This document shows, one piece after another, positions 608 to 37,345 of a stretch of DNA of 43,570 nt. The notes beneath the pieces were generated by a model. That model saw nothing but the letters and a program-made list of their open reading frames with translations, ran no database searches and had not been told where the DNA came from. Within the stretch, counting starts at the first letter, position 1, and each line of letters opens with the position of its first letter. The position numbers and the translations under genes were made by a program. Origin of the DNA: Psammoneis japonica (taxonomy: Eukaryota); assembly GCA_008632985.1 (NCBI GenBank), contig QPGO01000162.1:124001-167570 (forward strand). The letters run 5' to 3'.

Positions 608-2388
608 TGTAGAAATTGACAGAAAGTGGAATTCGGAAGTCGTCTAGAAGACTCTGGAGATGCAGAGATCTTTCCAGAAAGTGTCATCTTTGACACACTT
701 GACATCTCGTTGACACTCCTTGACATCCACGAATGAACACACAAATGAAGCATGGATGACCGTGACACTCGGCGCTCGCTTCCCCAATTGAGGCGTTGGA
801 AAACAGGGTGAAGACGATGGACATTAATCCGCTCAGTGACACCGGGTGAGTGCTGGATGGCAACGGTTCCATTGGCATGAACATGGACAATGCGGAAGGG
901 ACCATCTTTGGTGTTGAGTTTGCATTGGATGTCTTTGGTCATGGCAAAGACTTGATCGCTGATGTTGCAGTCACAAGTGAGACGTTTTGCATTCTCACGG
1001 AGATTGTTGCGCAAGACAATTCACTTGCAACAGGCATCAATCATTTTCCAACCAGCGAGACAAGCAGCAGAAATGACCATGTCTTGACCAAAAACGACTT
1101 GTCTGGGAGATGACATGAGGGCAGTGTGACAAGCACTGCGCAAGGCCCACACAGCAGATTGCAAAACGTTGTGGATCATGTCCTTGCCACAATCACGTGA
1201 CGGGAGATCCATTGCACGGAGAGAACTGGCAACAACTTGATGGATGCGCTCAACAAAAGCGCTGGCTTGAGGATTCTTGATCGTGGCAGGCTTCAGCTTG
1301 ACTCCACAACTGCAGAGAAGATCTGCAAACTCGGAAGTAAATTCTGGACCATTGTTGTGAACGACAAATTCTGGTCGCAGATGGCGACAGAACCATTCAC
1401 GATCGACAATGAATGAAATGTCGTCGGACGTTTTGGATGCATGAGATGCTCGACACGTTCCAGCCCTGGCCAGGTGGGACTCCGTGTGACATTGGGCCTG
1501 CAGAATTCCACGTGCGAGCTCCACAGTGCAAGAATTTAATTGATGTGTGTGTTTGTCTTAAACATCAAATAAACGGCCAAGTTTGTGGTGCAATTGTGCC
1601 TCTTGCCACTCGACGTTTTTGCAAAAGCACCTGCCCTGCGCAATTCTTAAGACATTGTAGAATCGCGCTGTGACAAAAAATGTCAAAAGTTGTTGGACGG
1701 ATCGCTCAATGAGTGCACCGTAAAATGACACAAAACTTCGCAAAAATCACGTGGAAATCTGTGTGCGCGAACATGCAACGCGATTCAAAAAACCATCGAT
1801 GTCACAGTTCAGCAGCACGAGGTCCCACCTGGACCTGGAACACGTCGCGAGTTCGATCCAGCGGGTGGCAATGTCAATCACAGAAACGGCCTTGATTTTG
1901 CAATCTACGCCATTTTTGTTGGTGCGCGTCCACGGACCGGAAAGATTGACTTGCACTGCTTGCCAAGGTTGGCAAATGGTGTCAGGAAGAGGCAACTTGC
2001 CACAATTCGCAGTCATGTGCTTGGACTTGGGACATTGTTGGCATTTGCGGACATGCGCGTGGACTTTCAACTGCATGTCGCGAATGTAAAAATGTGAGGC
2101 CAATGCATGATGCATCCGATTGGCTCCAGGATGGCAGAGAGTTTCATGACACCAGCGGAGAACAGCCGGAAAAAAAGTTGGAGAAAGGACGATCTTGTCC
2201 TTGCAAAGGACAATTTGATTTTTGTTGAATTGTTCGGCGGAACAGATGTTGGATTTGGCAAGACGTTGTTGGAGAGCCGCATCTTTTTTCTGATGTTCGG
2301 CAATGATGTCAAAAGCAACGGGGAATGTCGAAGGGTCGATTTCCAATGGCTTTCTGGATGACAACAGCATTTTTTCATGAGGTTCCAC
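608..2388 (-). mobile_element. Ty3/Gypsy LTR retrotransposon 3' fragment (degenerate integrase plus probable 3' LTR)
   Basis: Integrase motifs across broken ORFs: WCHETLCHPG...CQQC (HHCC), WQAVQVNLSGPW, HNNGPEF, KNPQASAFVERIHQ, GPFRIVHVHANGTV. Purine tract GGGGAAG (minus strand, ~779-785) precedes a TG...CA-bounded segment at 608-767. Upstream RT/RNase H is absent. Confidence 0.85.
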
Positions 2389-2800
2389 TCAAAAAGCAAG
2401 AGAATGGTTTTCCCTGTCATGCAGTCTTCTTTGAATGAGAGGAGCTTGCACAGTGCTTGGAAGCACTCTGGGTGCTTGCCAAGCCACAAGTGTGTCATTT
2501 GCAGATCTGGTGGCTGCACAATGCACGCATGGCACTGCTGTTGTTTGACTTGACACTCTCCTTGCTGCCCACTGCTGGTCCAGCCAACAAGCATGATGTT
2601 GTCCCACCTTTTTCAATGATGGTTGAAAGACATGAATTGCTGGCTCTCAAGTTGGACTTAGAGCATGGGAAGCTGGCAGAATGTTTGTTCATTGCTGTCA
2701 AACTGCAAACAAGCAATGTCTGGTTTCTTTAGAAAATGCACACATGGCAGGAGTTGACACAAGCTTTCCTGCGTGCACATCATGAGTGCCGGTGCAATGA
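2345..2800. repeat. Direct repeat copy A (~450 bp; partner at ~5760-6285)
   Basis: Shared blocks such as ccctgtcatgcagtcttctttgaatg, gcatgatgttgtcccacc and aaacaagcaatgtc occur in both copies. Boundaries approximate. Confidence 0.85.
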
Positions 2801-5759: not shown

Positions 5760-6285
5760 GTTTCCTTCTGGATGCAACACAATGACATTCGTTCATCATG
5801 AGGCTCCCCACACAAAAATCAAGAGAATCGCTGGTTGTCCCCTGTCATGCAGTCTTCTTTGAATGTGAGGAGCTTGTGAAGTGTTCGGAAGCACTCTGGG
5901 CACTTGCTGTGGCAGCTGCGAGTGTGTCATTTGAGGGTTTGGCATGCTGCGTGCCGGCAGGGTGCACTGTTGCTGTTTTGTTTGACTTGACACCATTCTT
6001 CTTGCTCTGTCCACTGCTGGTCCAGCCAACAATGCATGATGTTGTCCCACCATTTTCAATGATGCTTGAAAGATCCGAATTGCAAGCTCCTCAAGTCGGA
6101 CTTCGAACATGAGAAGCTGGCAGTTTACATGCACACCTGCAAACACTGTGAAGTCATCCGAATGCGCATTCGTCGCTCAAACAAGCAATGTCCGGGTTAT
6201 TTAGAAGATGCGTACGTGGCGTGAGTCGACGTACGAGCTTTCCCGCCGCGTGCACTTCCTTGGGGCGGCGGGGAGGTGCAATGAG
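5760..6285. repeat. Direct repeat copy B, ending ~50 bp upstream of the DUF1118-like gene
   Basis: Aligns to 2345-2800. The gene-proximal end keeps CpG/TpA (gcgtacgtggcg versus gcacacatggca in copy A). Confidence 0.85.
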
Positions 6286-6335
6286 ATGCTCTAAGCTTGG
6301 TCGTTCACAACCAGCGAAACGGGCTTTGGCTGACA

Positions 6336-9492: not shown

Positions 9493-9779
9493 TTAAATAA
9501 CATGTACATGTATCTTCGATGGGATCGTTGATGCATTGAGTGATGCGATTGCGATTTTGGATTTTGGAATTTGCAGATGGCAGATGGATGGAGGTGATGG
9601 GACGGTGGGACGGGCAGGCGACGCAACATGACTTTGTTCGACTCACTCGACTGACGATGCTTGACCCGATGATGAGATTGCAGATAGATGGCAATGGAAT
9701 TGACGCAGGAAAACGATGGTTTGGATTGTGTCCAGCCATGGCAGCAGCAGGAGCTGTGTATGCATTTGTGGTTCTCTGG

Positions 9780-10880
9780 CATTGACATTGATGGCTGCAT
9801 TGAACATTTTCTTGGAGCTGTGGTTGAAGTGTGCGCGACAACACCTGTTGGTGCACAAAAGCAACCTCAGCACTGAAGAAATGTTTGGTCTTTTGGGGCA
9901 CAGGAACAGTCATTGGGGCACTCTGTACTCTGTGGACACAAACTGCTGTCTTCCTTGCTGGCAGTTCATGAGGTACCTCACTGAGATTTGTCAATGCCAG
10001 CACCCCCAGCCACCCTCTCTCACTTGAGAGCCAAAACTCATTCTTTTTTTTTTGTTCTGGAGGGAGGAACTCATCATTTGTCTCTTCCATGACAATGATG
10101 ACTTGACAAAGAATGTTGTCAAAGCACATTGGAGTGAACAAGAGTGCACTCTGTCGAAGCATGCAAAGCGAAACAAATGATCAGCGTCAAAAGCTGCTGA
10201 GCTCTCTGTCATCATCACTGGTGATCACAAAGTGCAAGCAAGCCCAGTGACCCACACACCCTGCACTCCTTGTCCCTGCAGGACTCTTGCTCTTCAATTC
10301 AAAAACAACTGCAGCTTTGAAATGTACGTGCGCTCCAGAGGAGTGCAACGAGGTGGTACAAACATGATGTGTGCACACGGAGGTCAATGAAAAAATGCCC
10401 TCCACACATTTGGTTGTCCTCACACACACTCACCACTCACCTTTTTTGAGACAAGATGGTCATCAATGGCAAACTCTGTGGTTGCATGGAATTTGAGTTG
10501 AACTCTGTGTGGACAAATGACTGGATTGGCAGAAAATTGCCAAAAAGGGCAACAAGATGGTGAGCCAGCAGAAGGCATTGCTGCCAGTTGTTGGTCAGTG
10601 CTGTGAAATGTTGCTTGTCACACTGAGACAGTGCAGTGCCATTGGCACAAGAATTGGCCACTCAAAATGGGCTTGTGAGACCCAGCAGCATGCCATTGGA
10701 GAGTTGGGGGCATCAGCACCAGAGGGTGCACAGAAACACATGCAGGACTGAGAGCAAGTCTGCAGTTGTTGGGTGATGACGCTTCCAAATAAAGTGGCGT
10801 GGGTGATGCAAGAGTGGCTCAAGTCTTGAAGGTTCCATTTCTTCCTCATTTGCCCCCATTGTGTCGAGTGGAGCTGTTCC
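9780..10880. mobile_element. Isolated TpA/CpG-depleted island, probable decayed TE remnant
   Basis: Only about 5 TpA in ~1.1 kb between normal genes. No coherent ORF and no termini recognised. Confidence 0.5.
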
Positions 10881-11242
10881 TGCAAGTAACAACCCTCAAA
10901 CCTTGAGATTTTCCCCGCAATTTCGACTGGAGATGGTGTTGGAAGATGCATGATTCGCTGCAATGACCGCGTGGCGGCCAAAGGGAGGAGGGAGCAGAGT
11001 GAAACTGGCGGAATCTGGTTCAGACGCAGACTTATGGGTGTTGAACGCACGAGATGGCGAGGCGAATCTCGAGGTGACTGGCAAAGCCGGCTAATTACGC
11101 ATTAATGAAAATGTCATTGGTGATCCCGTTTTCAGAGGGAGATTTGATTGCCGGTCGATTGCTAATGACACGTGGTTGACATCAAAATCTATTGTGGCTT
11201 ACGATTTATTCCATTTCCTCGGCATTATCGTCAACATTCTTT

Positions 11243-20507: not shown

Positions 20508-20542
20508 GGACATATTGAATATGTTTTAACTGTAAGCCACAA

Positions 20543-20899
20543 TGTGGGATTCTACCTAGGATACAGGTCCTATCTGTAGAATGTACTGCTGACAATCAGT
20601 ACAAGGTACTAAAAGCCAGTAAAATAGCAATGAGTTGTCTTACTAACTCGTGCTTAGTTGAAATTATGAGCTAAAACTAATCTAAAAGTGAATCTCTCGT
20701 TTTGTGATCCGAAAGATCTTGGATAATGCCACGTCAGAAAATAGACATTCTTCGAATGTCACTCACGTAGAATATGTACTAAGAGTCACGGCGTAAGTTC
20801 GTCACTTGAATTGTCCTTTCCGATGTCCAACTCAGCCGTATGGAAATGCTAAGAAGATTGGACGTCCTGAGATGTCCACAGTCATACTAAATTGTCACA
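20543..20899 (-). repeat. Copia 1 3' LTR (TpA-retaining copy)
   Basis: TG...CA ends; lies 35 bp beyond the host stop codon ending at 20507; aligns ungapped with 26685-27041. Confidence 0.97.
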
Positions 20900-20942
20900 C
20901 TCCTTTTGAAAGTGTCGGGTGAAGCTGTGACTTGATCTAAAA

Positions 20943-23900
20943 TCACCACTTGAGCAGCTTCTTTCGAAGGCGAGCAAATGTGTTTTGAGGCACTGGCTTG
21001 GTCTCCATGTCTGCAATTTGTTCAGTGGTGTCAATGGGTGGAATGGAAATGATTCCCTTCCTAACATGTTCCTTGAAATGATGCAGCGCTGGGTTGAAAT
21101 GCTTGGTTCTTGGTCTCATCTTGGGCAGTCTTGCAATTTCCAACGTGCCTGAATTGTCCTCGAATGCCTTGCAATGAACCAAAGGAGTCTTGGATGGCAC
21201 CTTGTGTCCATGCTCTTGAAATTCCTTGATCAAATTGATGACAGGAATGGCGCTTCGGAGGCTCTCGGATGAAGCGACACACTCGGCTTCTGTCGCACTT
21301 AGCGCGATTTGTGTCTGAAGCTTGGATGTCCAAACGACAGGGCAGTCTGCGCAGGCAACAACGTGCCCTGTCCTGGACTTTGAAGTGCTAACGTCATGAG
21401 GGGCAGTCATTTTGTTCCAATTGCCTGCGAAGTTGGCATCGGCACGAACTTCCAATGACTTGTCTTCCGTTGGGTCCAGAATGATGCCTTCATGTCTGGT
21501 TGCTCACAAGCACTTGCAGAGCCATGGCACTGCCTCACCGTGTGATCATTTGGGGTCACTTGAAAATCGCGTGACTTGATGCACAGTGTGCGCGATGTCG
21601 GGTCGAGTGCTCTTCTCCAGAAAATTCAATTTGCCGATGATGCTGCGACAGTCGAAGGATCCGTCAAAAGATTCTTGGTTCTCATGTCGATGCAGCATCT
21701 TTGAAGACGCTGCTGGAGTCTGCTTGTCTGGCACACGACGAGGTGAGTTCACCATTTTGAGCATTTGCTTGATCATTTGTGGTTGCATCAGCTTCATTCT
21801 GCCATCAGGCAGTGTCTCGATGTTGACACCGAGGCAGTCGTCAATGTTTCCTTGATCATCGATGTCGAAGATCGCGTTGCGGATGTCTTCAATTGCCTTG
21901 TCAACAGCATCCTTGTCTGGTGATGCAAGTGTGCCATCGTCAACGCAGTGCACCAAAACAACATTTCCTCGACAACAAAGGCATTCATCGACTTTTGATT
22001 GTTTGAATCCGATTTTCAACAATCCTTCTCGCAAGTGCTCACCCCACACTCTCCCTGCTTGTTTCTGTCCACACAGGTTCTTGAGTGATTTCAACACATG
22101 GGTTCTGCCATTGCCGCACTTGGTTTCGACGCCTTGTGGCAGCTCCATGCACATGTCAAATTCGATGTCGGCGTGAGGACAGGCAAGAACGAAGTCGACT
22201 TGGCGAGTGTGCCATCAATTAAAAACGGACAGCATGAGTGGGAACCGCACAGTGTTCCAATTGACAACTGCTGCATGAGTCTGAAAATGATTGACTGCAT
22301 GCTCTTGTTTTCCACCGTGCACATTGAGCCTTGACTTGCACTCACACACTTTTCTTGTCTTGATGTCTCTTTTTCTCTTCACAGACCACACCGCTGGGAG
22401 CATGTTGACTCCCTCTGGAACTTCTTCGACAGGAATCAGTTTCCAGTTTTTTTGTTCAATGTGATCATTGACTTCCTTGATGCAAGCCTTGATGAACTCG
22501 TCTCGGTCTGGTTCATTCATGGCTTGATCAAAATGCATGGCATCTGGGTCCGTCCTGGCTAAGAATGCGAAAGGTGAGTCCATGTTGTCTTGCATCTTGT
22601 AGTCGCCCTTGTGCATTGCATCGCAGCACTCGCAATGGGTCGACAGATATGATGCGATGCCGGCAGTTCGTTGTTGTTGACTTTCTGCCTTTCATTGCGT
22701 TGGTTTGCGTGCTCTGCCAGCCCTGCCAACACTTGGTTGTTCTGGCACCGTCTCTTGAGAGTCTTCAGGTGTCGTGTCTTCTGCTGATTTGGGCGTCTCG
22801 TCTTCAGCAATGGGGAAATGCTCGTCTTCGAGTTGTTGCGGAACATTGGGTTCCGGTGTCGAAGTGTTCTGTGCTGGCGCAGCAGAGCGAGGCTCCCTTG
22901 CTTCCCTTTGTGGCTTGAAGACATTGAATCTTGATGCTCTTTGCTTCTTGAGTCCTGATGCGGTTTGCCATTGCGAGAACGCAGGTGCATTTCCTGCTGA
23001 AGGGCGCACCGTCTCGAAGAAGTCATCAAATTGAACATGAAATTGCAGAGAGGCAAGTCCAGTCTCGAGGTTGAGCACTAAATTGACTGATCCAGCGTGT
23101 CTCGGAGATGGTCCCAAGTTGATTCCTAACCTTGCTCTTGATTGCCACTTGGGTGCTCTCTGTCCACTCTGCAGTCGGTTGTCAAGCGCATGGACGGGGC
23201 ATCCGAAAGTGTGGTGTTGTTTGAGATTTGGAGCAACCTTGACGGAGGCGAATCGTTCGATTGGAGAGCTGCCATCTTCGTGGTTGGGCATGTTGTTCTT
23301 GAGCTCATTTGAATTGCGCAGCGCACTTGGCCAGAGATTGATCTCAACAGCCGTTGGCCATCTTGCTTTCGCATGCAGCAGCTGTTTGCAAGTCTGTTCT
23401 TGCAGGTCTCGGATTCGCTTTTCAGCAACACCATTTTGGAAGTGGGCGTTGACGCCGCAGCATGATGTGGTTTGTCCTTGTTTCTCAACGTCTTGTGTGA
23501 AAGCGTTGTCAGCAAATCGTCCGTTGTCGGCATGGCAGTGTTTGATTTGGACATGATGTCGTCTCGCAAAGGCTTCGAAAGCGTGCTTGGCTTTCAGGGT
23601 TTCCTCGGAGGCAAGTGATCATTGCAGGAACACATGTCCAAGTTTGGAGTGGTGATCGACAAATGCTGTTGCTGCTCTGCATTGCTGTTTTGCAGGTCTC
23701 CCTTTGAGTTGAGGGACAAAGCCTGGGGTTGAGCTTTCAAGCTGATCTGCTGATGTGACCTCTCCTGGCTTTGCAGCGACATGTGTGTTTGACTTGCATC
23801 TGGATTTGGCACGCCAAGGGCGTTTGGTCATGGCGCCACAGAGGCAGCTGGCACATTTGGGTTCCTTGACCTTCAGGAGGCATCGCGGAAGGACACCCAA

Positions 23901-25136
23901 CACAGCCAGGAGCTCAATCATTTTGAATGATTGGTGTCGGAGGCGACAGTGCCAACGCAACAATTCACCTTGGTCGTTGGTGGCCACCAGGGCATCATCG
24001 TCAGGGATGACGTTGATGGGATCTTTGAGTTGAGAGCGGACGTCTGGGGTCGCTAGATCCTTGAGGTTCTCATCAGGTGAGTCGGATCTGTGTGCAGCAT
24101 CTGTCAGTTTGAACAACAGTGGCACGTCCTCATCAACGTTGTTGCATGCGCCTTGGGTCTTGTCAGGACCTGTCTCGTCAGGACTTGTGAAGGCGTCTTT
24201 GTGATTCGCAGCATCCGCGGACTCAGGGTCACTGTCGTCGTCTGGAGGCATCACGTGCGTTTGACAGGCTACGTGCTCGACAGTCTCGACATTGTTGTCA
24301 GCATTGACTGCGGCGGCGAATGCCCAATGATCGGCAGCACCGGGTGCGGAACGGAAGCGTGCAACGTTGGAGTTGTTGGTCCAAGGGACCAGCCTCGTGT
24401 GCTTCCTTTGATCCCACATGAGTGGGAGGCCGTCGTCTCGGTTCCAGGAAGTCGTTCCGTGTGGTTCAGGACAATGATCCTGAGCTTGCTGGCTCCATTG
24501 CTGAGGGCAGAGGAGGCAAATGGGCAAGTTGGGAACATGCAGTGCGTCGTGTATGGTGATCGTATGCACCTGTCCGTCGTCGTCTTCGATGCACCACTTG
24601 AGTGTGCCCTCTCCTTCTGCGTCTAACCATCCGCCTGCTCCCTTGATCTGCTTGTTTGCAGGACGTAGGTCACCAACAAAGTGTGATCCATCGTTCGACA
24701 TTGTGCAGGTTGCGTGGTTGTTGATGCCGACAATGAAGGAGTCGTAGTCGCAGGACACTGGCTCCGTTCTTGGCTCTCTTTTGAATGGTGTCGTGGTGGT
24801 CGAGGTGTTGGCGTAGACCGTTTCGCGAAAGGTGATCTCGCATTGAGCTGTCTTGCACGCAATTCGAGTGGGATGGCCCTTCTTCTTGTGAGTGATGTAT
24901 CGCGGTGAGTGTCGACTCTTGTTTCGTCGTGGTTTGCGTGTGCCAGTCATGCTGTCAGCTGGGATTTGCGAAATGATCCACTCACCCAACGTCATTGCTG
25001 ACTTAGACACGCGTTTCCACTTCTTCTCTGGCAGGTTGAGCGTCGTAAACACTGTGAGCACCAACAGTGGAGCCATGGCATCTACGAAGCTTGTGGTGAC
25101 CAGGGCAATTGCAAACGCGACAAGCACCGCCTTCAT
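20943..25136 (-). pseudogene. Copia 1 pol (PR-IN-RT-RNase H), broken by stops
   Basis: ORF pieces 23619-25136, 22692-23291, 22215-22616, 21546-22154 and 20943-21455 carry Copia motifs with Tyr replaced by Cys/His. Confidence 0.93.
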
Positions 25137-25172
25137 GCAGAATGCCCATGTCCGGAGCGCCTTCCGGACTGG

Positions 25173-26600
25173 TCATTCCTCGGACTCGTGATCCTCGATG
25201 ATTGAGGCCAGAGCGTTGGCATGGGAAACTTTCTTGTTGGAGTCTTTCGTTCCGCTTTCGGATTCTTGAGCTCTGCAAAGTTGACAACCTTTGTCTCCCG
25301 GATCATCAGGTGAGTGAGCTGCCCAAGCAGAGTGGTGCTTGCACCAACAACATTCTCTTCCCTTCTGACTCTTGTGATGATGCTTGTGCCCATTGACAGT
25401 CTTCGTAGGATCACTGTCCTTTGGCGGAGTCTTCTTCCAGGCTTCATCCTGTTTCTTGGCGCGCTTTGGGTTCTTGCTCTTGTTCTTGGAGCTCTTGCTG
25501 CCACCTCCCTTGGACTTGCTGGGACCACTCTTGAGAGCCTTGGAGAGCTTGAGGTTGTGATCCTTGATGGTCTCGACTTCCGTGGTAAGTGCGACAATCC
25601 TTTCCTGCTCAGGAGAGAGTGCTCCCCACTTGTCTGCTCGATCGAGGTTCGTGCACTTGTTGAGTGCTAGCTGCATGACTCGTTCCGGAGTGCAGTCCTC
25701 ACCGTCGTCGCACTTCTGTTCTATGTCAGCCATGCACTTGACGAATGCTTGATCGCTGGCTGCTGCGCATCCTTTGAATGGATTGACCACAAGGTCATTG
25801 CAGCCTTCTCCCCCAGCTCTGAGTCCGTCATGGTTGAGTTTGACGTGCTTGTTGAACTCCTTGATGTTTGAGTTGCAGGTCGACATGCATGAGTCAAGGC
25901 TGGACAAGTTCTTGCGGAAGCAGTTCGCGGTTGAGCGAGCATCCACAATGGCCTTCTGAGTGAGTAGTTTGAAGAACAGTGCACCGACTTGTGCTCCATT
26001 GATCTTGCATTGCTCACTTTCGGCGATGATCTTGTCTCTAGCTTCCACAGTTAGGGTCTGAGAGATCGCCTCAGCCATTTGGACTTGGTTCTGGGCTTGC
26101 CTTGACTGAGCAGCCATGCAGGCAGTAGCGTGGTCGCGCACGTTTTGTGCGGCAAGTCTGCCATGCTCGGTGATCAAGTCTCGAGCGATTCCATTGCTGT
26201 CAGGGATCGACATGATGTTTCCCGTTCCTGACTTCCATCCTGACTCTGCTGCTCATTCGTTGAGAACTTCACAGAATTTGTTGAGACCTTCAGAGTCTCT
26301 GTTGAACTCGTGAGGCAGTGGAGCCGCAGCAGCATTCCAGAGCTTGAGACCTTGCGAGGTGCCGCAGTCCATCCAGTTGTTTGGATGGTGCTGACCAGAG
26401 GTCAATGCGAACATGGGTCCTGCAGCAGGTGCTGCAGGAGGAACCGGAGGCACTGGAGGTGCTGGAGGTGCACCTCCTCCACCACCACCTCCTGGAGGGA
26501 CTGGTGGAACCGGTGGAACTGGCGGTGCTGGCACAGGTGCACCTGCCGGAGCGGCAGCAGGAGCTGCAGCAGGAGCTCAAGTCGCAGCAGACGAGGTGCG
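25173..26600 (-). pseudogene. Copia 1 gag with Pro/Gly-rich N-terminus
   Basis: ORFs 26253-26534 and 25173-26213; Lys-rich region, WCKHH..W..H motif and acidic tail; located between the 5' LTR and pol. Confidence 0.85.
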
Positions 26601-26684
26601 GGTGGTTGCCATTGTTGGATGGTTTGGGTCTCGATCAATGGCTGGCTTGAAATCGAAGTTGCGAAGCAGGTCGCAGAGGAAGCG

Positions 26685-27041
26685 CGTGGGATTCTACCTG
26701 GGATGCAGGTCCCATCTGTAGAGTGCACTGCTGACAATCAGCACAAGGTGCTAAAAGCCAGCAAAATGGCAATGAGTTGTCTTGCTGACTCGTGCTCAGT
26801 TGAAATTGTGGGCCAAAACCAATCTAAAAGTGAATCTCTCGTTTTGTGATCCGAAAGATCTTGGACAATGCCACATCAGAAAATGGACATTCTTCGAATG
26901 TCACTCACGTAGAATGTGGACTGAGAGTCACGGCGCAAGTTTGTCACTTGAATTGTCCTCTCCGATGTCCAACTCAGCTGCATGGAAATTCTAAGAAGAT
27001 TGGACGTCCTGAGATGTCCACAGTCATGCTAAATTGTCACA
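26685..27041 (-). repeat. Copia 1 5' LTR (TpA-mutated copy)
   Basis: About 30 substitutions versus the 3' LTR, 21 of them TA->TG/CA. Confidence 0.97.
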
Positions 27042-27118
27042 CACAACACTGTCATTTCTGAGTTCAAGGGACTTCATAGAACTCTCTAGTTGCAGTTTTG
27101 ATGTCATTGGAGTTGCTG

Positions 27119-27480
27119 GAACCAAAGGGGTGAAGTGGCGTTGTTGGTCAAGGCATGGCTTGAGGTGCTTGCGCTTCTTCTCCTTTTCGTGGGCTTCTGG
27201 GACTTTTTCTGGATCTTTCAAGCAATGCAATTTTGCATCCGTGTCTGTGACTCGGACGTCGAAGATGGCATCAGTCGACCTTTGCCACCAACCTTGCACC
27301 AAAATGTCACCTCGGTCACCGTCTTTAGACTTGTGAAGATTTGCAGAGACGTTGGCTTGCTCATTCTTTCCAGTGTCATCCGTTGAGCTCCTTGAGTCGC
27401 GGCCAGGGCCAACTGAAGGTTCGTCACGCACTGAAGAGGGCTTGGTGGATTTGCTGAAGAGATCAGCTGGCTCGTCTCTG
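27119..27480 (-). mobile_element. CRE-like non-LTR retrotransposon, 3' part (restriction-like endonuclease), truncated
   Basis: EIRDE...RGDILVQGWW..DAIFDVRVTD..EKEKKRKH..C...RHFTPLV. Continues RHDE|IRDE from 35223 once Copia 2 is removed. Confidence 0.85.
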
Positions 27481-27547
27481 ATTTCTGTCAGCCTGTCTAT
27501 CTGCACATCGTGTGATGGACAGACTGGACACGGATGATGGCCAGACC

Positions 27548-28101
27548 GACGTGTTCCAGCCGCACGTGAACCAAATCGTGCACAAAAACGACATTTGCGC
27601 GATTTTTGCGCGGTCCCTAACTTACGATCGAACTTTCACAACCAAAAGTATAGATTTATACAAATATAAATGTTTTGCAACACTAACAAGACTCGTGTGA
27701 GTGTTGCAATATCATTGTTATTGTGCTATCTATGTTTTTCATTGCGTTAAAAGATTCGTAACACAACGGATGATTTTCGGCGAAAATGTTGCCGTTATTT
27801 GGATGTTACCTAAATATATCTTTCTACGATGCTAATTGGTAGGTTTTCTACCTACGAAAAAATCTCAGTATAAATCTACTGACGTACAATCAGTATTGAG
27901 TCTACTGAGGAAGTTTATGATATATATCCCATGAGGATTTGAATACCCCTCAAAAAACTATTTAAATGTTCATACTCTGGAAGCCTATAAAAGTCAATCC
28001 GTCTAAGTATTTTTATGAAAATGCTATATACACTAAAATATACATAAATTATATTCAAAATCCGATTGTCGTTTTGTGCGTCACCTGGGACTGAACACAC
28101 C
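27548..28101. mobile_element. 554-bp AT-rich MITE-like insertion in the Copia 2 5' LTR
   Basis: Absent from the 3' LTR. Flanked by a GACC duplication (27544-27547, 28102-28105). Imperfect inverted ends gacgtgttc / gaacacacc and subterminal gcacaaaaacgaca / tgtcgttttgtgc. Confidence 0.88.
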
Positions 28102-28415
28102 GACCATTTAGATGGACGAGCAGATCTCTCTGAGATCTGCTTCTCACTCTTTTCTTGCTGGCACTCATGTTGTCACAGTCCTGGTACTTTGGGGAGTCTT
28201 TCACATCATTGTCGCCTCTCACCTTCAGTGTTCTGTCAGGTTGTGGCCACACGCTGTGCCACAAACCTCTGCGCCAAGCTTTCTGTTGCGACTCATCTGT
28301 TTTGTGAGCCGATCGAGCAAGCCTCATTGTCTGATCTGACAATTTTTTTCTCGCTTTCCCGGCATTTTTCACGACTGTAGAAACATGCCAGATTTCTGCG
28401 TGTGCATGACCAAAA

Positions 28416-30460
28416 ATGCCCTCACCAAGTGAAACCATGGCGTCTCCAGACCTTTCAAAGGCCGATCCGTCATCCATTGCAGAGATCCATTGTGAACTCC
28501 AAGAACATGCAACGATGCCTCATTTCCACACAACTTTGAACAAGACACATGCGGACTCCACATTTGATCTGGACTCGTCCTTTGACGATCCAGAGCGTGC
28601 TCAACCGAAGAAAGATTTTGTTGACACATTTCAAGATCATCTCGTCAACACGGCGTTCCCACCTTGCACGGTTCATCCTGTGGACACACAGCCTGTCAAG
28701 ACGATTGTGGACGACGCTGTGTTCCGCGTTGTTGACTCTGCCAGGCCTCGTGCGATCCGCATGATGCCCGCATCTCTCTTGTCGATCATCAAGACCAATC
28801 TCCGCAACCATGATCAAATCACATGTGTCATCATCTCTGCACACCACATTGACGTTGACCCAAACATGAAATGGAACCATGAGGATTGGAAAGAGTTCTC
28901 TCTCACACCCCACCCCCAGAACCCACAGCCCACACCTTCATCTACGACTGGTTCAGGACCCACCACAGTTGGCATGAATGACTTGATCACTGCCCTCAAT
29001 GAGTTTGCGTCGAGCCACGCTCCGCCTTCTCCAGCTTCTGCCAAACCGCCTGGAAGTGCCGCATCTTCCGTTGCATCGAAGTGCCTCTTCAATCCGAGCA
29101 CACTGCCTGCAGATGTTCGTGAACGCCACGACCGCAAAGAAGCCGGTGAAGTGACCCTGAAGAGCTCTCTCGTTCATTGTGATCATGGATTCCGTCATCA
29201 CATTGATGCATCTGATCGTGTCATTCTCAATGATGGCACTCTCTTCATCATGAGCTCGACTCCTGATCAGAAAATGCTGTTCAGGGAACCTCCAATGTGT
29301 CATGATGACTCTCCCCCTGGGATGCGTGCATGGTGTCAAAATTTCCAACGTCATGCCTTTGATTCAGGATGCCACATGCATCCCTTGTGGTGTTTTGCTA
29401 AAGACCACGGTGGTGAGAAGGGTTTCGAGATCGGAAACGGCAAGGACGATGACTTGCCTCAACACATGCACATCCACTGCAAGGAAGCTCAAAGCTCTCT
29501 CCACAAGATCCCATCCAAGTTGGATGTGTTCCCCAAGAACAGCAAACATCATCAGATTGTTGCATCATGCTGTGGCAACGGGTGCAAGGCTCTCAAACAG
29601 ATTGTCTGCGAGAATCATCCTGCTTTTGACCACGACGCTGCTGGACTAGTTGACTCCCATCCTGTCCAGGGCAATTGATCATTGACAGATTGTCACATGA
29701 TCTTCAATGATTTCCTGCAGCCACGTGCCTGCATCTTTGACACAGACTCTACGTTGGATGATTCACGAGAGATGACTGTTTTCATCAAGAACACCAAGCA
29801 TTCCAAGTTCTTGTCTCGTGCCACCAGAGATGAACAAAGTCTCCAGCCATGCTCAAGAAGTGTGCACAGATTGTTGAGACTCTCTCTGATTTCCCCCACC
29901 AACCGGATGGCCCATCCCTCACCACTCGTGCCACACCATCCAATCCCCACCGTGAATGGACTCGAACACCTGAGGATGCACGACGCACGGCTGTTGATGT
30001 CAATGCTCTCAAGGTCCCTGAAATCCCTCCTTTTGAACCAGTCAATGACACTCCTCCTGATGACACTGTCACAGAATCTCCACCTCCAGATGCCTTTGAT
30101 GCTTTTTGTGATGAATTGCATGAACTTGAGATCCCTTCTGCGGACAAAGATCAACTTCTCCGACATGCACACTCGGCTTTAGTTTACAAACTGAAAGTCA
30201 CTCCGAATGAAGCCTCCAAGAAACCATGTCTCATCTGCTCCGGCGAACATTCATTCGATGGCTGTCCAGTCTTGCAGAACAACCCATGCATCAAAGGATT
30301 TCACATCCAATTTTGTCAATTTTTGAAGAGGGAAGCAGCCATGCGTGCTTCTAAGTTCCAAGGACCCCAAGGTCTGCTCCCACCTCATCATGAAAACCCT
30401 GCAATTCCTCCTGCATCTGGTGCTCCGCCATCGGATTTTCAATTGGGCCGTCGCAGCTAG
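28416..30460 (+). pseudogene. Copia 2 gag
   Basis: ORFs 28416-29678 and 29849-30460; CLICSGEHSFDGC zinc knuckle; ends SDFQLGRRS*. Confidence 0.85.
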
Positions 30461-30482
30461 TTTCAGATCTCCGACGCTGCCC
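30433..30482 (+). promoter_or_regulatory. Putative -1 ribosomal frameshift signal at the gag-pol junction
   Basis: G GAT TTT heptamer in the gag frame, 5-nt spacer, stem GGGCCGTCG / CGACG(CT)GCCC. The -1 frame is open into the pol ORF at 30502. Confidence 0.7.
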
Positions 30483-30501
30483 ATTTTCTCCTCACCGAGA
30501 C

Positions 30502-33500
30502 ATGACCAATGTCAGCGGGATGACAATGAAAGAGGGGCTGACCGTCTCGTCATCTGCCGCTGCAATGCCTCTTTCTTCGCAGATTGACATGGATGCCACC
30601 CCTTCCACTGCCACGAAGGCATCATTTGATGCCAGCAAGTTGCCAGATGATGACCCTGCTCCTCTGGAGGACACCATCGATGCTGCTCCTGCTCCGGATT
30701 CTTTGGAACAGGGGAGGGAAGACCCAGAAACACCGGATTTTGAGGAGCACATTGACCTCACCTACAATGACATGGCTGTTGAGGATGGCTTTGCTGCTGT
30801 CAACTCTGTTTGTGTTGCTCCAATTGATCCATGCCAAGCCACTCACTCTCCTGAACCGGAATTGCTGCGCTCCACTTGTTCTGTCAACGGGGTCAACTTT
30901 GCTCCGAATGAACCTTGTGCTCAGTTGGATGCTGGCGCTGACACAGCATGTGCAGGCGACTGTGAACTTCTTCATCGATGTCAAGAATTTACTCCATCCC
31001 ATCCCTGCCCTCTTGCCGTCAATCTGGCACTTGGCCATCATGCTGTCCCAGTTGGATTCGGATGCCTCCGCATTCCCGCAGAGAACTCCAACGGATGTGT
31101 TGAGGTCTGCACCTGTTGCCACCCGCAGATCCGATCTACGTCAGTCGATGAGCACCCACTGCTTTGCCAGAATGGCACTCATCACGCCGATTGCAATGTC
31201 GACTGTGTGCTGAAGTTCCATGATCTTGGCACCTGCAAGTTTGTTGCACGACGCTGATTGCGCAAGAATCAGGACATCATCACACATGGGAAGCTGATCA
31301 ATGGCAAATGCTGTGCTCACCCTCTCATCCTCCCTGACTCTCACATTGAATTGGATGCATCTGTCGAGTGCCTCAAGAACAGTGACCCTTCTTTTGCCAA
31401 TGAGTGTGAAGGGGTCTCTGCGCACATGATTGAAACATGCAGCACGCACCAACATGAAGCTCTTTGTAACGAACGGAATTTGATTCCCCGAGTCTGTCAA
31501 GATGTTCCTTTTGAGGATTGTGCCGAGAAGAACATTCCTGTCCAGTCTCTCAAGGCCGACACGGAACGCGTTTTATGGCATCAGAGACTTGGTCATCCGA
31601 GTGACCGCTGCCTGTGTCATGCCCATGAACACGTGGACGGTGTCCCCAAGTTTGCCCACGGCACTTCTCCTCTCAACACTTGCCCTGCATGTGTGCGCGC
31701 TAAGCAGACAAAGGAACCTGCAGGTCCAAACACTGCTCTCACTGCCACCCAACCCTGCCAAGGCCTCACGGTTGATTTTTTGTTCTCTGGATTGCGATCC
31801 AAGAACTCGGAGTGCACCAAGGACTGCATTGGGTTGAATGGCAAGACTTGTTGGATCACTGTTTGTGATCATAAAACAAAGCGTCTCCATGGTGCGACTC
31901 GTGTTTCCAAGGCAACTCCTTTGAATTGGCTTTGACACTTTCTGGAAGAGCACTCGCCAAAATGTCCAGATGAGCATGTGTTCATGGATCAAGGAGGTGA
32001 ATTGCATCAGAATCCGGAGGTCCGACAACTTTTCGAGGATGACTTTCACTGCGCAATTCATCCCACGGGAAAAGATGCTTTGAATCAGAGTGGCCCAGTG
32101 GAACACAGTCATTTGTCTGTCGCCAATGCCATTCGGGCGATGCCAGTTGGTGCTGACTCACCCATGAAATTCTGGCCCTGTGCTTTCCATCATTTCATTC
32201 ACATCAACAATGCTGTGCCATCCTGTGGACAAGCTGCTGCTCTGATTGCTCTCGCTGCTGGTCGCAAGGATGATTTCAAGAACTTTCACACATTTGGTTG
32301 CCGTGTTTGGGTGCATGCTTCGAATCACCGCCCAGCGAAGTTTTGGTCTATCTCTTGCAAGGGCATTTTCTTGGGCTGCCTTCCGGACACTGCCAAGAAC
32401 ATCCTGTGGCATGACACCGAGTCATTGCGTGTCAAACTTGCCAAGCATGTCCATTGTGATGAGGGGATGAATGATCTCCCCCGAGACTCCATTCCCCCGA
32501 ATGTGGTTCACTTGGAGCGTGCTCAAGATGGCAAGGCTCCACCTGCCGACACTGACAAATCTACGATGGATGAGTTTCACTTCCATGGCAATCCTTTTGC
32601 AAAGACCATCACGCGCACAATGAAGGGCCCATTTGCTGATCCTGCATTTGGAACGTCATTGGCTGCAGATGATCTCTATCGGCAAGTGTTTGTCTTGGAC
32701 ATTGAACATGGCTCTCCTGCTGCGCGTCTTTTCTCTTCTTTGAAAGCAACCCGTGAGAAGATCAAGGGTGAGTGTGTTGCATCAATTGATGATCAGCCTG
32801 TCTTTGCGGCGGAGGAGGCCATCAAGCATCTTCAACAAGTGTGTGATTCTGGCAAGACTCATTTTGAAATCGAATTCGTGCCAGGACGTCACCTGGACTC
32901 CCAGGCTCTACAACGTGCTTTGATGGAACACAATGTCTGTGCACCGACCCCTGATCCTGATGATGAACATGTCCTGGAGACAACCAATGCTGACATGCGC
33001 GCCATTGCCACCATGTGCCATCCTGATGTTGATTTTTCCAAGATGGACAATGATGACGTTCCTCCGCTGTTTTCCATCGACCATGACAATGGTGTGGTTT
33101 CTATCTGTGCTGTTTCATCTCATGCTGTTGCTCCAGAGGAACAGGCATTGGGCACTTTCACTTGCCATTGCCTCAAGAAGCTGGGTGCGTGGCCCGAATG
33201 GCACGCTGGTGAACTCAAGCAACTTGATCAATTTCATGAGTTAGGAATGTTTGGTGCCCTGATTAAACGTCCAAAGGATGCCATTGTACTTCGTCCACAT
33301 TGACAATGTGACCTCAAGCATGATGGCACACGACGATCTCGACAATGCTGCGATGGATCTCCCTGTGCTGCCTCGATTCTCCATTTGACTTCACTTGACC
33401 TGCTCCTCTTGTGTGGAACAACCCATCCAACGAATGTTCTTTGCCCTTGCTGCAACAATGAGCTGCCCTGTCTTTGGTGGTGATGCCTGTGATGCCTGTG

Positions 33501-34844
33501 CACATTCTCTGATGCATGTGCGACTTGGTGCATGGCTTGGTTTGGCATTGAATTGGACAGGAGCATGGTGCTTCCAATGCAACATGCACTTCAAGGACAC
33601 CCGGAAGCTGGTGTTCTATGAGAGACGCATGTCAACGGCATCTTGTCTGATGTGAATCTGCTTTTTCGCAATGCTGCTCATGACAAATGCATCCACTCCG
33701 CTGCTTTTGAAGGACATGAGATGCTGCTCCTTTGTCAGGTTGATGATTTCTCCCTTGTGTGTCCTGAAGAGTCCCTTGCAATCCAAATCTACGACAAAAT
33801 TGGCAAAGCTCTTCAACTGGAGTTGCAACTTCTCCGCCCTTCAAGCATCTTGGTGTGATTGCAGAGTTCAATGGTGTGGACATTCATCAATGTGATGACT
33901 CCATTGGTGTTGCTGTTCACAGTCATGTTGATCGGGTTTGCACCTTGCATGGATGGTTGACACTGACAGATGAGGAACTCAACGATGACTGCAAGGCTGT
34001 GCCAATCCCGGTCGACTCTGTTCAAGAACTGCACACTGCCATTGGTCCAGCTGAAGGAACCCCGGAGCATGCGGAGTTGCAACAGGCTGTTGGATTTGGT
34101 TGTTGCACTTCACTTGGTGAATTGTTGCATGCGCATGTTGTCTGCCGATTGGATGTTGGACATGCCATCACCACCCACTCCAAGTTCTCTGCTTGCCCTG
34201 TGATGGTTCACCATGCTGCGCTCAAGGGTGTCTGCAAGTGCCTTCGACGTGCCAAGCAAAGGGAACTGAACCACAAGAAGCCCAATTGAGACTCGCGATT
34301 GCCTGCCTGCCCTTTTGAACGTCTCACTCCGGACCCGACCCTGCCGTCGTTCCCTTTCCCCGAGCATGATCATCAACTCATTGCCTTTTTGGATGCCGCA
34401 TGTGGTGATGATCTTCATAACCATCGCTCTACGACCGGACATGCATGCATGTTAGCCGGAGCTGCTGTGTCTTTCCAGTGCAAGACTCAATCGGTGACAG
34501 CTGCGAGTTCAACGGAAGCGGAATTCTGCACTGCTGGCACTGCTGCCAAGCATGTCCTTTGCCTTCGTCACATCCCACATGACCCGGGCTTCTCTCAGAC
34601 AAAGCCAACCCCGTCACACATTGACAACGAATCGGCGATCAAGATCATCAAAAATTCGATCCCGACCAAGCGCTCCCGTCACATTGAAATCCAGTTTTTT
34701 GCGATCCAAGAATGGAAGGAAGTGGGCAAGATTGTCACAAGACACATCCCTGGCATTGTCAACCCCAGCGATGACCTCACCAAGGCCCTTGGCTGGGCAC
34801 TGCATGCTCACCACGCTCGACACATGATGGGACACTGCTGTTGA
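30502..34844 (+). pseudogene. Copia 2 pol (PR-IN-RT-RNase H), broken
   Basis: ORF pieces 30502-31257, 31258-31935, 31978-33303, 33855-34289 and 34299-34844 carry Copia motifs. Confidence 0.92.
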
Positions 34845-35022
34845 TGTTTTTTTCCGCGGTGGCTCCCCTGCTGCGCATTGCCCTCCTTGTTTGATTGCAC
34901 ATTGAGCAGGGACACTCATTGTGTCGTGTGTCTGGTCTCTCTGTTTTTTTCTCACATCATCCCTGTTCTTTGGTTTGATCTGCACTGTTCTCTATGATGA
35001 GTCATCACAGATCAGGGGAGGG

Positions 35023-35217
35023 TGTCAGCCTGTCCATCTGCATGTCGCATGATGGACAGACTGGATGCAGATGATGGCCAGACCATTTGGACAGACGAGC
35101 AGATCTCTCTGAGATCTGCTTCTCACTCCTTTCTTGCTGGTGCTCGTGTTGTCACAGTCCTGGCACTTTGGGGAGTCTTTCATGTCATTGTCGCCTCTCA
35201 CCTTCGGCATTCTGTCA
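35023..35217 (+). repeat. Copia 2 3' LTR
   Basis: TG...CA ends, preceded by the PPT and followed by the TSD. Confidence 0.95.
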
Positions 35218-35222
35218 ATTTC

Positions 35223-37345
35223 ATCATGTCGCAAGATGACTACATTCCAGTGCATGTTGTGTGGAAAATTTGCACCCGCATCCATCACACTCCTGCACGA
35301 GGTGGGTTGGGAGGTGTTTCGGCATGGTGCACATGAAGGGCATCATGGAACTCATTGCTCGACAGCTCTGTTCCATTCACAACAGAAGGACAGACAGACA
35401 GCCAAGCACCAGTTTGTGTGCTTCTTTGTGTGGCTCTTGCTTTCTCGTTTGGCAGAGCATTGAGAACATTGCAGAGTTTTTGTTTGTTTGTGACATTCTT
35501 GCGCTCCAGAACAGTGGACTTCACCTCCTTGGAGGTTTCTCGGTGAACAGCCCATTGGAACTGCACGCGGCCGCGCAGGGAGTCAATTGCGTGAGCACTC
35601 ACCAGGGTGCTTGATTTGCAGTTGTCTGGGGCTGACTCTGTGGGACAAGGGATTGAGAGTCCAGCAAATTTGACGGGCAGGGCCGACAGGGCAATCCCAG
35701 GATCTTCTTGATCTGGCATGTCATTGAAGAGTGCTGGGAGGAAGAGATTGGCGATCGCTTCCTCAATCTCCGTGAATGAGTCGCCACAGCTCTTTGCCAC
35801 ATGCTGGACATGTTGCCATTCATGTTGCAGTGATTTTTGCATCCCTGCATGTGCTGTCTGGGGACACTTTGCTGCGATGTCTGCCAGACCTTTGACGATG
35901 CTTGTCCGCTTCTCGGACTTCTCTTCTGTCCATTTCCTGAATTCTTCCTCCTCACCGACAAAACCGCCAAGGTGTCTGTGCTTCCAGTGGCAATGGAGAA
36001 GCCAAGATCTCCAAAGCAATGCTTTGCAGCTTCCAAGTTGCAACTTGTAACTGCTGAAATGTTCTTCTTGTTGTTGTCGGGGCAGTGTCCGACTTGTGGA
36101 CCTGGCTCTCGCAAGCACAGGAAGAATGCTCTGATTCTTTCAAACCTTCCAGCGGCAGCCGAGTCATCAGTGCACCAGGGTTTAAACACATCTGGAAATT
36201 CTTTGTTTGGTTGCTTGACCAGTGGGAGAAGTCCCAGTCTGTGCACAACCATTGTGAGCGGGTCGCCCTGCGTGACACCTTCCTTGCTCTGAAGAGGAAG
36301 AATGCTGTGCCAAAGTGTCCTTGGATGACTGGGATGCTCCGATGCTTGCAGCAGTTAAATGTGAATCGGGCCCCAGAGGGTCAGAGGAATCCAATGCTGC
36401 AGAGCATCAGAATTCTGTTCTCCTTGTTGAAGCCATTGAAGGTGTTGATGAAGAGGAATCCGAGCTCGTCTTCGAATTTGTTTTGTTCCCAAAGTGGATT
36501 CATTGCATGAACCCCTCCTTCGACACCTGCTTCAAAACCAGCACAGAGTTGGTCTGTTCCACAGGCATCTTTGACTTCGGAACCAGCACAAATCATGATG
36601 GCTTTGGCTGTGATCCATTGCCAGATCTCGCCCATGCCGACCGGGTGCACGCCCGGGTTTTTGTCTGGTGTGAGTGGATGCTTTGCCATGAGCGCGCGGC
36701 AGGCGGCCCACGGAGGCAGTCCGTTCGCCACCCAGTTTGTGAGTCTCCCAAGTGCCTCTCTCAGGAGTCCACTGGCTTCTCCACCGGCACTGTGGCAGTA
36801 GAGCAGCCAGTTGGAGGCTGCATTGGCATCTGTTGCGCCGAGTCCACCACTTCCTGACAGACGTCTTGCTGCTTTCTCAACAGCGCCATTAGAGACTGGC
36901 ATGTCTTGGAAGTCTGGCAGTTCACCAAATTCGTGAAAGTGGGCTTTTTCTGGGATTCATGCGTCTGGATGCTTCTTTAAGAGGATGTCTTGGACTGGGT
37001 CCTCAGTCTTCTCGTCGATGTTGTCTGGGGCCAGAACTCCCCCCTTTTCACTGTTGGCTGTGTGGCGCACCGCCGCACGCAAGTTCCCTCGCAGCACCAT
37101 GTCATTGAAGGTTTTGGCACATTGATCAGATGTTGTTGATCCTTGATTGGTTTTAAGGTTGCTCTCAAGGAGCCGTTCAGTTGACTGAACAAGCATTTTA
37201 TGCTCACCTGCACCCCAGTCGTTCATGTGTCTGACGAGAAGCGAACGAATGTTCTTGGCACCTTTTGCCTCTCCGTCTCTTTGTAAAATCACTGTCTGAT
37301 CTCCAGAGGAGTTGACACTGTTTGCTCTTTGCTGAATGTGTGTGA
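35223..37345 (-). mobile_element. CRE-like non-LTR retrotransposon, RT part, degenerate and 5'-truncated
   Basis: DKNPGVHPVGMGE, QLCAGFEAGVEGGVHAM, FNGFN, GVTQGDPL (~36256-36279), WCTDD (from the W-Y-x-DD motif), LPVKFAGL, GAWL, RHDE. Confidence 0.88.

Follow-up and report, generated by a model that had tools for sequence, protein, structure and literature searches.

Why should the proteins of transposable elements (TEs) in a diatom genome contain almost no tyrosine, when the genes beside them contain a normal amount? The question is raised by a stretch of 43,570 nucleotides of Psammoneis japonica DNA (assembly GCA_008632985.1, contig QPGO01000162.1, positions 124,001 to 167,570; this whole stretch is hereafter called the window), in which two retrotransposons, Copia C and Copia D, form a nest with an apparent non-long-terminal-repeat (non-LTR) reverse transcriptase (RT) element, element E, next to host genes. 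The answer put forward here, which is considered likely to be correct, is that the diatom host mutates integrated transposon DNA at the dinucleotide TpA, changing it to TpG or CpA, and that it does so to near saturation and by chromatin domain.

The loss of TpA on which this answer rests is real and far beyond chance. When the five TE blocks of the window are pooled (23,136 bp), TA occurs 117 times versus 1,416 expected from base composition, while in three pooled host stretches (18,773 bp) the corresponding figures are 694 and 1,207; expressed per kb, there are 5.1 TA in the TE blocks and 37.0 in host DNA, a level about sevenfold lower in the TEs. In successive 1-kb segments, rho(TpA) is 0.02-0.19 in positions 1-6000, 10001-11000, 21001-27000, and 29001-37000 and 0.24 in 28001-29000, compared with 0.34-0.99 in segments that are wholly or mostly host DNA, the value of 0.34 belonging to a segment (37001-38000) that straddles a boundary between block and host. 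The longest run lacking TA altogether extends for 927 bp (23127-24054). The footprint is limited to mobile DNA; host genes keep normal TpA, and the borders of the blocks are sharp. Among the TpA that survive in the TE blocks (n = 116), there is a relative excess of the contexts CTAA, TTAA, and TTAG, while ATAC, ATAT, and TTAT are nearly missing, although these counts are small and some of the survivors may be new mutations.

What the blocks have gained matches what they have lost. In the TpA-depleted blocks, rho(TpG) and rho(CpA) lie at 1.3-2.2, and TG plus CA number 204 per kb versus 143 in host DNA. CG is also depleted (34 per kb versus 60), and the decay of CpG to TpG or CpA, the usual footprint of cytosine methylation, thus co-occurs with TpA loss in the same TE blocks and feeds the same products. 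Because both TpA and CpG end as TpG or CpA, the deficit of TA (32 per kb) and that of CG (25 per kb) together roughly equal the excess of TG plus CA (61 per kb).

The consequence for coding capacity is direct. Since the codons for Tyr and the stop codons TAA and TAG all require TA, the blocks are full of long, overlapping open reading frames (ORFs) in all frames, and every ORF within them, on either strand, has 0-3 Tyr. The polyprotein of Copia C has 5 Tyr in 1,769 codons (0.28%), versus a median of 3.37% in 120 relatives, and eight ORFs of Copia D have 3 Tyr in 2,121 amino acids; six host ORFs have 75 in 2,666. The initial annotation of this DNA, made from the sequence by itself, had already contrasted nearly Tyr-free TE ORFs with normal host ORFs, and the contrast holds on both strands of the blocks, with slightly different ORF lengths.

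Which way the change has run was determined for Copia C, whose parts are as follows.

20538..20542, unstranded: left target-site duplication CACAA of Copia C (the right copy is at 27042-27046)
20543..20899, minus strand: 3' LTR of Copia C, spared, with 29 TpA (TA positions, LTR alignment)
20900..26684, minus strand: internal region of Copia C, with a gag-protease-integrase-RT-RNase H polyprotein
26685..27041, minus strand: 5' LTR of Copia C, mutated, with 7 TpA (LTR alignment)

The polyprotein of Copia C is a single frame of 1,769 codons (20946-26252) that has no frameshift and six in-frame stops, with the Pfam domains gag_pre-integrs and SH3_retrovirus upstream of RVT_2. All six stops are TGA, given that TAA and TAG require TA, and at 4 of the 5 that can be aligned, the relatives commonly have Arg, so that a change of CGA to TGA would fit. 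When residues 720-1769 were used as a query, with stops read as X, 1,099 relatives were obtained at E<=1e-10; the 120 listed are 43-58% identical, and one named relative comes from the diatom Epithemia. Copia C was then aligned with 59 relatives (the first 60 listed minus the Tyr-poor protein P0005), and a threshold of at least 70% conservation gave 510 conserved columns.

In the 28 columns where Tyr is conserved, Copia C has kept Tyr once and has Cys in 16, His in 9, Ser in 1, Leu in 1, and Arg in none. Raising the threshold to 90% conservation leaves nine Tyr columns, none of which keeps Tyr (7 Cys, 2 His). Other conserved residues are retained at 70-100%, except for Ile at 50%, with the lost Ile replaced by Val, Thr, Met, and Phe. 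In contrast to Copia C, the relative used as a control, P0002, has Tyr in 27 of the 28 columns, and it is therefore the relatives that carry Tyr where the window carries Cys or His. The same is true of individual motifs that had been singled out at the outset as altered from an invariant form. CVDD lies exactly at 21936-21947, LCGQKQA at 22056-22076, RTGH at 21363-21374, and EAEC at 21279-21290, and the consensus of 25 relatives reads YVDD, LYGQKQA, RTGY, and EAEY, respectively. In element E, WCTDD is found at 36163-36177, where the box of relatives is WYADD and where non-LTR RT relatives have Tyr in 19 of 27 cases and Phe in 6 of 27. The absence of Arg at conserved Tyr indicates that no TpA has been changed at both of its bases, and a single hit consequently appears to make the site immune; the ratio of Cys to His at Tyr codons, 16:9, is not significantly unequal.

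Reversion in silico gives the same answer. Changing TG to TA or CA to TA, and nothing else, restores the consensus at 42 of the 89 conserved columns at which Copia C is mismatched, while restoring CpG undoes 8 of the 89 and each of six other classes of transition in context undoes 0-2. The TpA-type change is thus far commoner than other transitions, as had been predicted. The accompanying argument that CpG decay could not be the source fared less simply: the loss of TpA to TpG or CpA does go well beyond CpG decay (42 versus 8), but CpG decay is also present and also yields TpG and CpA. The two have much in common, since both have these products, both are confined to silenced repeats, and both are found in the same blocks; however, CpG decay cannot remove TpA or convert Tyr codons.

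Relatives at the DNA level point the same way. Among 79 related Copia loci from metagenomes, rho(TpA) ranges from 0.16 to 0.93 and is at least 0.36 in 78; the existence of Copia relatives with ordinary TpA and Tyr means that the ancestors of the elements in the window had both. The direction is thereby fixed as TpA to TpG or CpA. A different view would be that the elements are natively free of TA, through selection against TpA/UpA or against stops, or that the change ran in reverse, a conversion of CpA to TpA in the TA-rich LTR like that of repeat-induced point mutation (RIP). TpA is mildly under-represented in most genomes, and the host DNA here (rho about 0.58) is included in this tendency. 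However, catalytic and invariant Tyr have been lost, the frame of Copia C has six stops, and relatives have normal Tyr and TpA content, none of which is expected of natively TA-free elements. Neither version accommodates LTR pairs that have diverged at these very sites (see below), and the reverse conversion would place the TpA of the TEs above the host level, when it is about sevenfold below it. Either version is barely credible.

When did the changes occur? Both LTRs of an insertion are copied from a single template and start out identical at integration. Copia C and Copia D are both complete insertions, recognizable as Ty1/Copia elements by their direct TG...CA LTRs and 5-bp duplications. 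Alignment of the Copia C LTRs gives 29 mismatches over 357 nt. At 11 sites, the left LTR has TA and the right one TG, at 10 sites the left has TA and the right CA, and no site is reversed; at 3 further sites CG in the left LTR faces TG or CA in the right. Differences that are neither TpA nor CpG amount to 5 in 357 for both LTRs together. The right LTR has lost 22 of 29 TpA sites, and comparison of these counts would place the TpA load roughly two orders of magnitude over background. The two strands are evenly hit, with a TG:CA ratio of 11:10.

The second pair of LTRs belongs to Copia D, which is set in the nest in the following way.

27047..27485, minus strand: 3' part of the putative non-LTR RT element E, TpA-poor (tblastn)
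27481-27485 and 35218-35222: target-site duplication ATTTC of Copia D (flanking repeat)
27486..28238, plus strand: 5' LTR of Copia D (27486-27547 + 28102-28238), split by a 554-bp insert
27548..28101, unstranded: insert of 554 bp in the 5' LTR of Copia D, resembling a miniature inverted-repeat transposable element (MITE) (inverted repeats, TA count)
28239..35022, plus strand: internal region of Copia D, with several frameshifts (ORFs, Pfam)
35023..35217, plus strand: 3' LTR of Copia D, with 0 TpA (LTR alignment)
35223..37290, minus strand: main part of the putative non-LTR RT element E, 5'-truncated, with WCTDD (tblastn, RT alignment)

Copia D belongs to another family than Copia C, with no similarity between them at the DNA level, and Pfam gives gag_pre-integrs and SH3_retrovirus only. 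Its LTR is 195 nt long, and its two LTRs have 21 mismatched bases over 199 aligned nt, of which 14 make up 7 pairs of TG versus CA, in both polarities, while 3 more are TA versus TG or CA. The sequence GGTTGTGG lies at 28239, directly 3' of the LTR, at the place for which a mutated primer-binding site had been proposed; the proposed ancestral octamer of that site was counted 3 times over 430,857 bp of related loci, where chance predicts about 6.6. Relatives of Copia C align with Copia D at 20-24% identity, a weak alignment in which 0 of the 8-20 Tyr aligned per relative are kept and about a third to a half are Cys or His.

The simplest explanation for LTR pairs that differ at TpA sites, with TG at some and CA at others, is that each LTR has been hit independently, on either strand, after integration. 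For these sites, divergence after integration rules out both RT error, which the initial annotation had likewise thought unlikely, and editing of RNA or cDNA before integration. The latter, as a general explanation, would involve an ADAR/ADAT-like enzyme that changes A to I in double-stranded TE RNA, or acts on single-stranded cDNA. It has some attraction. According to the text of a preprint on Bigelowiella natans (Mettrop et al., 10.64898/2026.01.13.699255), ADAR-type enzymes prefer a U 5' of the edited A, and P0005, the protein set aside above, is one-sided, with 14 Cys versus 2 His at the 28 conserved-Tyr columns, which fits editing of the sense strand. However, the LTRs of the window differ at 21 TpA sites in Copia C and 10 in Copia D, with no polarity in Copia D; the 3' LTR of Copia C, whose U3-R part belongs to the RNA, keeps 29 TpA beside a saturated interior; and a 5'-truncated non-LTR element and two LTR families are affected within one contiguous domain. 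Editing before integration is accordingly regarded as distinctly unlikely. APOBEC3 and ADAR resemble the process seen here in that they are deaminase-type agents of retroelement hypermutation, with ADAR sharing the U or T before the edited A, but they act before integration and on one strand and leave identical LTRs, whereas here both strands have been hit after integration. As candidates for the window they were rejected, since the LTRs differ at TpA and TG:CA stands at 11:10.

The affected DNA is not a single element. The hit domain is unbroken from 20900 to about 37290, across the nest of elements E, C, and D. For element E, which the initial annotation had called CRE-like, membership among non-LTR RT elements is supported by comparison with its relatives, as far as the RT is concerned: 2,498 were found at E<=0.001, and 5 of the 8 full-length relatives scanned contain RVT_1. 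In tblastn, residues of about 790-1047 in 7 of the 8 full-length relatives align at 27047..27485, and earlier residues align at 37373-35236; the alignment of the relatives is then resumed at 27563-27030. It follows from this alignment in two separated parts that Copia D has been inserted within element E, while Copia C sits at the junction of element E and host DNA. Element E has 6 TA in 35251-37150, and it keeps 0 of 7 conserved-Tyr cells, a noisier count in that it involves two overlapping ORFs in different frames. The claim that the effect spans several classes of element, made at the outset, stands as regards two Copia families in opposite orientations, the non-LTR RT element, and the block with a Gypsy integrase (described below); as regards the direction of change, it is borne out for Copia C and element E.

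What decides where the mutations fall? At the left border, dense TA ends at 20888, beyond which the first TA are at 20938, 21062, and 21300. The spared LTR on the other side of this border starts about 35 bp past the stop of a 627-codon host ORF (ending at 20504-20507) that reads toward it, and, because of this position, the LTR very likely carries the 3' end of that gene. Nor does the spared LTR show the CpG decay that has affected its twin. A second spared sequence lies inside the domain. The MITE-like insert has imperfect terminal inverted repeats, GACC on both flanks, and 53 TA in 554 bp at 35% G+C, without hypermutation; its summed depth in contigs of run X1 is about 15,000, versus 120-180 over host DNA. 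It resembles a small element of very high copy number that has probably been active recently. Many loose contig ends in run X1 begin at 27548. Element E, on the other hand, has about single-copy depth (35-67 at 90% likeness) and yet is saturated. Since a single-copy element is saturated and a high-copy insert is spared, repetition is a poor predictor of targeting, and a better fit would be a domain of silenced, methylated chromatin with active genes at its borders.

These features also distinguish the process from RIP in fungi, its closest classical counterpart, which it resembles as a genome defense that introduces one type of transition, in a preferred dinucleotide, into integrated mobile DNA, without insertions or deletions and with a strong skew. 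RIP changes C to T, mostly CpA to TpA, and makes DNA TA-rich, whereas the process here removes TpA and raises G+C. RIP is also set off by duplication and mutates each of the two copies, whereas here one LTR keeps 29 of 29 TpA and its twin keeps 7. Fungal RIP was therefore rejected as a candidate, given the opposite direction (conserved Tyr in relatives, TpA in the TEs below the host level) and the untouched high-copy insert.

A process with the same signature has been described in B. natans, and the window provides a second lineage and the first transposon-centered, saturated example. In the text of the preprint (10.64898/2026.01.13.699255), two integrated viral regions acquired 231 de novo mutations, of which 230 are A to G or T to C; all 230 fall on TpA, and the rate, seen in only some lines, is about 1000-fold over that of the rest of the genome; 324 low-TpA coding sequences are enriched for RT and DDE domains. 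As far as that text describes them, the B. natans mutations are like those here in being A:T to G:C changes solely at TpA, giving TpG or CpA according to strand, with a long-term outcome of low TpA and high TpG plus CpA. Mismatches of this type make up 21 of 29 in the Copia C LTRs and 17 of the 21 mismatched bases in those of Copia D. Copy number is not the trigger in B. natans, where the viral region is single copy, and the high-copy insert here is spared. The two systems also differ. B. natans is a chlorarachniophyte (Rhizaria) and P. japonica a diatom (stramenopile); the preprint reports rates in mutation-accumulation lines, whereas the window holds an end state alone; and depletion is partial in the viral regions of the preprint (rho 0.45 in the nucleocytoplasmic large DNA virus, or NCLDV, region) but near-total here (about 0.08). 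The timing given by LTR pairs, the base-sharp borders, and the coincident CpG decay are found here and not in the preprint text, which does not mention diatoms (0 occurrences). Loss of TpA from diatom transposons was not found in full-text searches, whose scope did not extend to subscription journals and bioRxiv supplements, and look-ups of terms in the text of two papers on diatom TEs (PMC2806351 and 10.1101/2025.10.24.684338) gave no report of it. It is inferred that the process in the window is the same as that in the B. natans mutation-accumulation lines.

The signature is also present in other DNA. One of the 79 metagenome loci, from a microbial mat (L073, positions 1-4773), contains 37 TA across 4,773 bp, and its Copia frame of 739 codons encodes 2 Tyr. 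P0005, which is 58% identical to Copia C and is encoded on a contig of 65,999 bp, reads Cys at 14 of the 28 columns, His at 2, and Tyr at 11; unlike the window, it appears to represent a half-way state that is strand-biased, which would mean mostly A to G on the sense strand. These two cases bear on the possibility of an artefact, in which a modified base at TpA would lead the sequencer or polisher to read A as G, or T as C, in error, while the true genome kept its TA. Systematic miscalls at modified motifs do occur in some long-read data. However, a systematic miscall is hard to reconcile with LTRs in which the same context reads TG in one copy and CA in its partner, and contigs of run X1 (31-letter words, depth about 35-65) agree with the window at every base over TE stretches of 409-1,211 bp; the same contigs show many related TE copies, with 587 differing places. 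In addition, the unrelated metagenome contig and the public protein show the same signature, as do, according to the preprint text, Illumina data in B. natans. That the footprint is a miscall is thus very improbable indeed.

Taken together, changes that are specific to TpA, run in one direction, fall on both strands after integration, and end at sharp boundaries have led to the following model. The host would convert the palindromic TpA of integrated TEs to TpG or CpA by changing A:T to G:C on either strand. One hit would destroy the target, and an ancestral TpA would become TG or CA but essentially never CG. Codons that contain or span TA would change, with Tyr becoming Cys or His, ATA-Ile becoming Met or Thr, and others following suit, while TAA and TAG stops would neither arise nor persist, leaving dead elements with deceptively long, Tyr-free ORFs. 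The process would act on the domain rather than on single repeats and would stop within a few bases at the LTR beside the host gene. As to chemistry, the adenine of TpA may be deaminated to hypoxanthine, which pairs with C. Enzymatic adenine deamination at TpA would be the most likely chemistry, although the chance that it is correct is put at about even. A different route to the same mixture of TpG and CpA would begin with thymine: a TET/JBP-type enzyme would modify the T of TpA (e.g., to 5-hydroxymethyluracil), and mispairing or mis-repair would then turn T to C. The symmetric outcome (TG:CA of 11:10 in Copia C, no polarity in Copia D) is equally expected of this route, and 5-hydroxymethyluracil in dinoflagellate DNA has been reported to favor TpA and TpC. 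However, nothing in the window favors thymine over adenine, and the only published treatment of the signature, as set out in the preprint text (Mettrop et al., 10.64898/2026.01.13.699255), proposes adenine deamination, with an ADAT2/ADAT3-like candidate that is unproven. The thymine route is therefore judged improbable.

Several points weigh against host mutation of integrated DNA by chromatin domain. All of the evidence is an end-state footprint, and within a palindrome, sequence alone cannot separate adenine deamination from modification of thymine. The evidence for domain over repeat targeting is circumstantial: the spared 3' LTR of Copia C could have been produced by later gene conversion from an intact copy, and the MITE-like insert may be younger than the last burst. 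The evidence on direction comes from the Copia and non-LTR RT elements. Finally, run X1 may be the assembly's own data and, if so, is not fully independent.

The blocks just mentioned are the remaining TpA-depleted DNA of the window.

1..6150, minus strand: TpA-erased block A, a Gypsy-type integrase fragment plus a more decayed stretch (TA count, Pfam)
9511..10887, unstranded: TpA-erased block B (10 TA in 9500-10900)

Block A has 29 TA in 6,150 bp, with rho(TpA) of 0.03-0.12 and rho(CpG) of 0.05-0.37. The Gypsy-type integrase fragment occupies about 586-2388 on the minus strand and matches Integrase_H2C2 (E 3e-10), the only Pfam family obtained on stop-read-through frames of A, B, E, and 27040-27640; comparison of block A with solved structures gave weak matches to the integrase core (E 0.0025-0.01), and no longer relatives of its ORF at 1750-2388 were found by search. 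A diverged direct repeat is present at 2375-2679 and 5796-6123. Alignment of this decayed pair over a longer extent (2226-2895 versus 5630-6388) has 778 columns, of which 138 are mismatched and 127 have gaps; among the differences are 17 bases of CG versus TG or CA and 4 pairs of TG versus CA. In 2001-6000, CpG rho is 0.05-0.37, versus 0.41-0.94 in the other TE blocks, which suggests that the element there is older or more heavily methylated. Block B has no Pfam family match and may be a decayed element of an unrecognized family; an ORF at 9365-10180 straddles its left edge.

The host genes of the window, as identified by Pfam, encode an NAD-dependent epimerase/dehydratase-family protein (best match GDP-mannose 4,6-dehydratase), a diflavin reductase, a WDR3-like protein, and an M11 peptidase; Protein Atlas, consulted for a host protein, gave broad eukaryotic clusters only. 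The best match of the diflavin reductase covers 65-77% of the query at 60% identity (59% among near-full-length matches), and its named relatives are all from diatoms: Cyclotella cryptica (54% identity), Mayamaea pseudoterrestris (51%), and Odontella aurita (43%). Together with the Epithemia relative of Copia C, these proteins place the window in a diatom, one to which none of the named records is close. This gene, methionine-synthase-reductase-like and located at 37296-39057 on the plus strand, is without the N-terminal flavodoxin domain of its diatom relatives of about 800 amino acids. Its homology begins at about residue 200, at the edge of element E, and its frame shifts between 37302-37523 and 37516-39057. 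The sole X1 contig over 37512 has 23 extra bases that would join both parts in frame, and the gene in the window may be a frameshifted allele or an assembly error. On the other side of the nest, the host ORFs at 17453-18600 and 18624-20504 (plus strand) are internally repetitive. The first encodes a PT-repeat protein with self-matches in 17594-18584; the second, the 627-codon ORF that reads toward Copia C, is Cys-rich, with 49 Cys and internal repeats of about 440 bp. Contigs from runs X1 and X2 show clustered allelic differences in 18830-20142.

One consequence of TpA erasure concerns annotation. Because only TGA can stop a frame in TA-free DNA, overlapping ORFs of 100-500 codons are found on both strands, and the blocks mislead gene finders with long, stop-poor ORFs in six frames. 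At the same time, the Pfam scores of true TE domains in the blocks fall near or below threshold, and with scores depressed in this way, the TE content of such genomes is probably under-annotated.

The second consequence concerns genome defense itself. To our knowledge, the mutational defenses described so far are cytosine-based, namely RIP in fungi, APOBEC in animals, and CpG decay. The window indicates that the TpA process extends beyond a single species and beyond viral inserts, and it further supports action on integrated DNA, within domains whose borders are sharp to the base. It also moves the question to a group with genetically tractable model species, if these share the process. The responsible enzyme would be a natural A:T to G:C editor of DNA, to be set beside the engineered adenine base editors. 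It is proposed, tentatively and as one possibility that may well prove wrong, that diatoms and chlorarachniophytes share an old, chromatin-directed, TpA-specific A:T to G:C editor of double-stranded chromosomal DNA, activated in bursts and working alongside cytosine methylation. If this is true, such an editor would permanently disarm transposons and integrated viruses by erasing their Tyr codons while leaving neighboring genes untouched down to the base, and blocks of low TpA and high TpG plus CpA would mark silenced foreign DNA across the SAR (stramenopile, alveolate, and rhizarian) supergroup.

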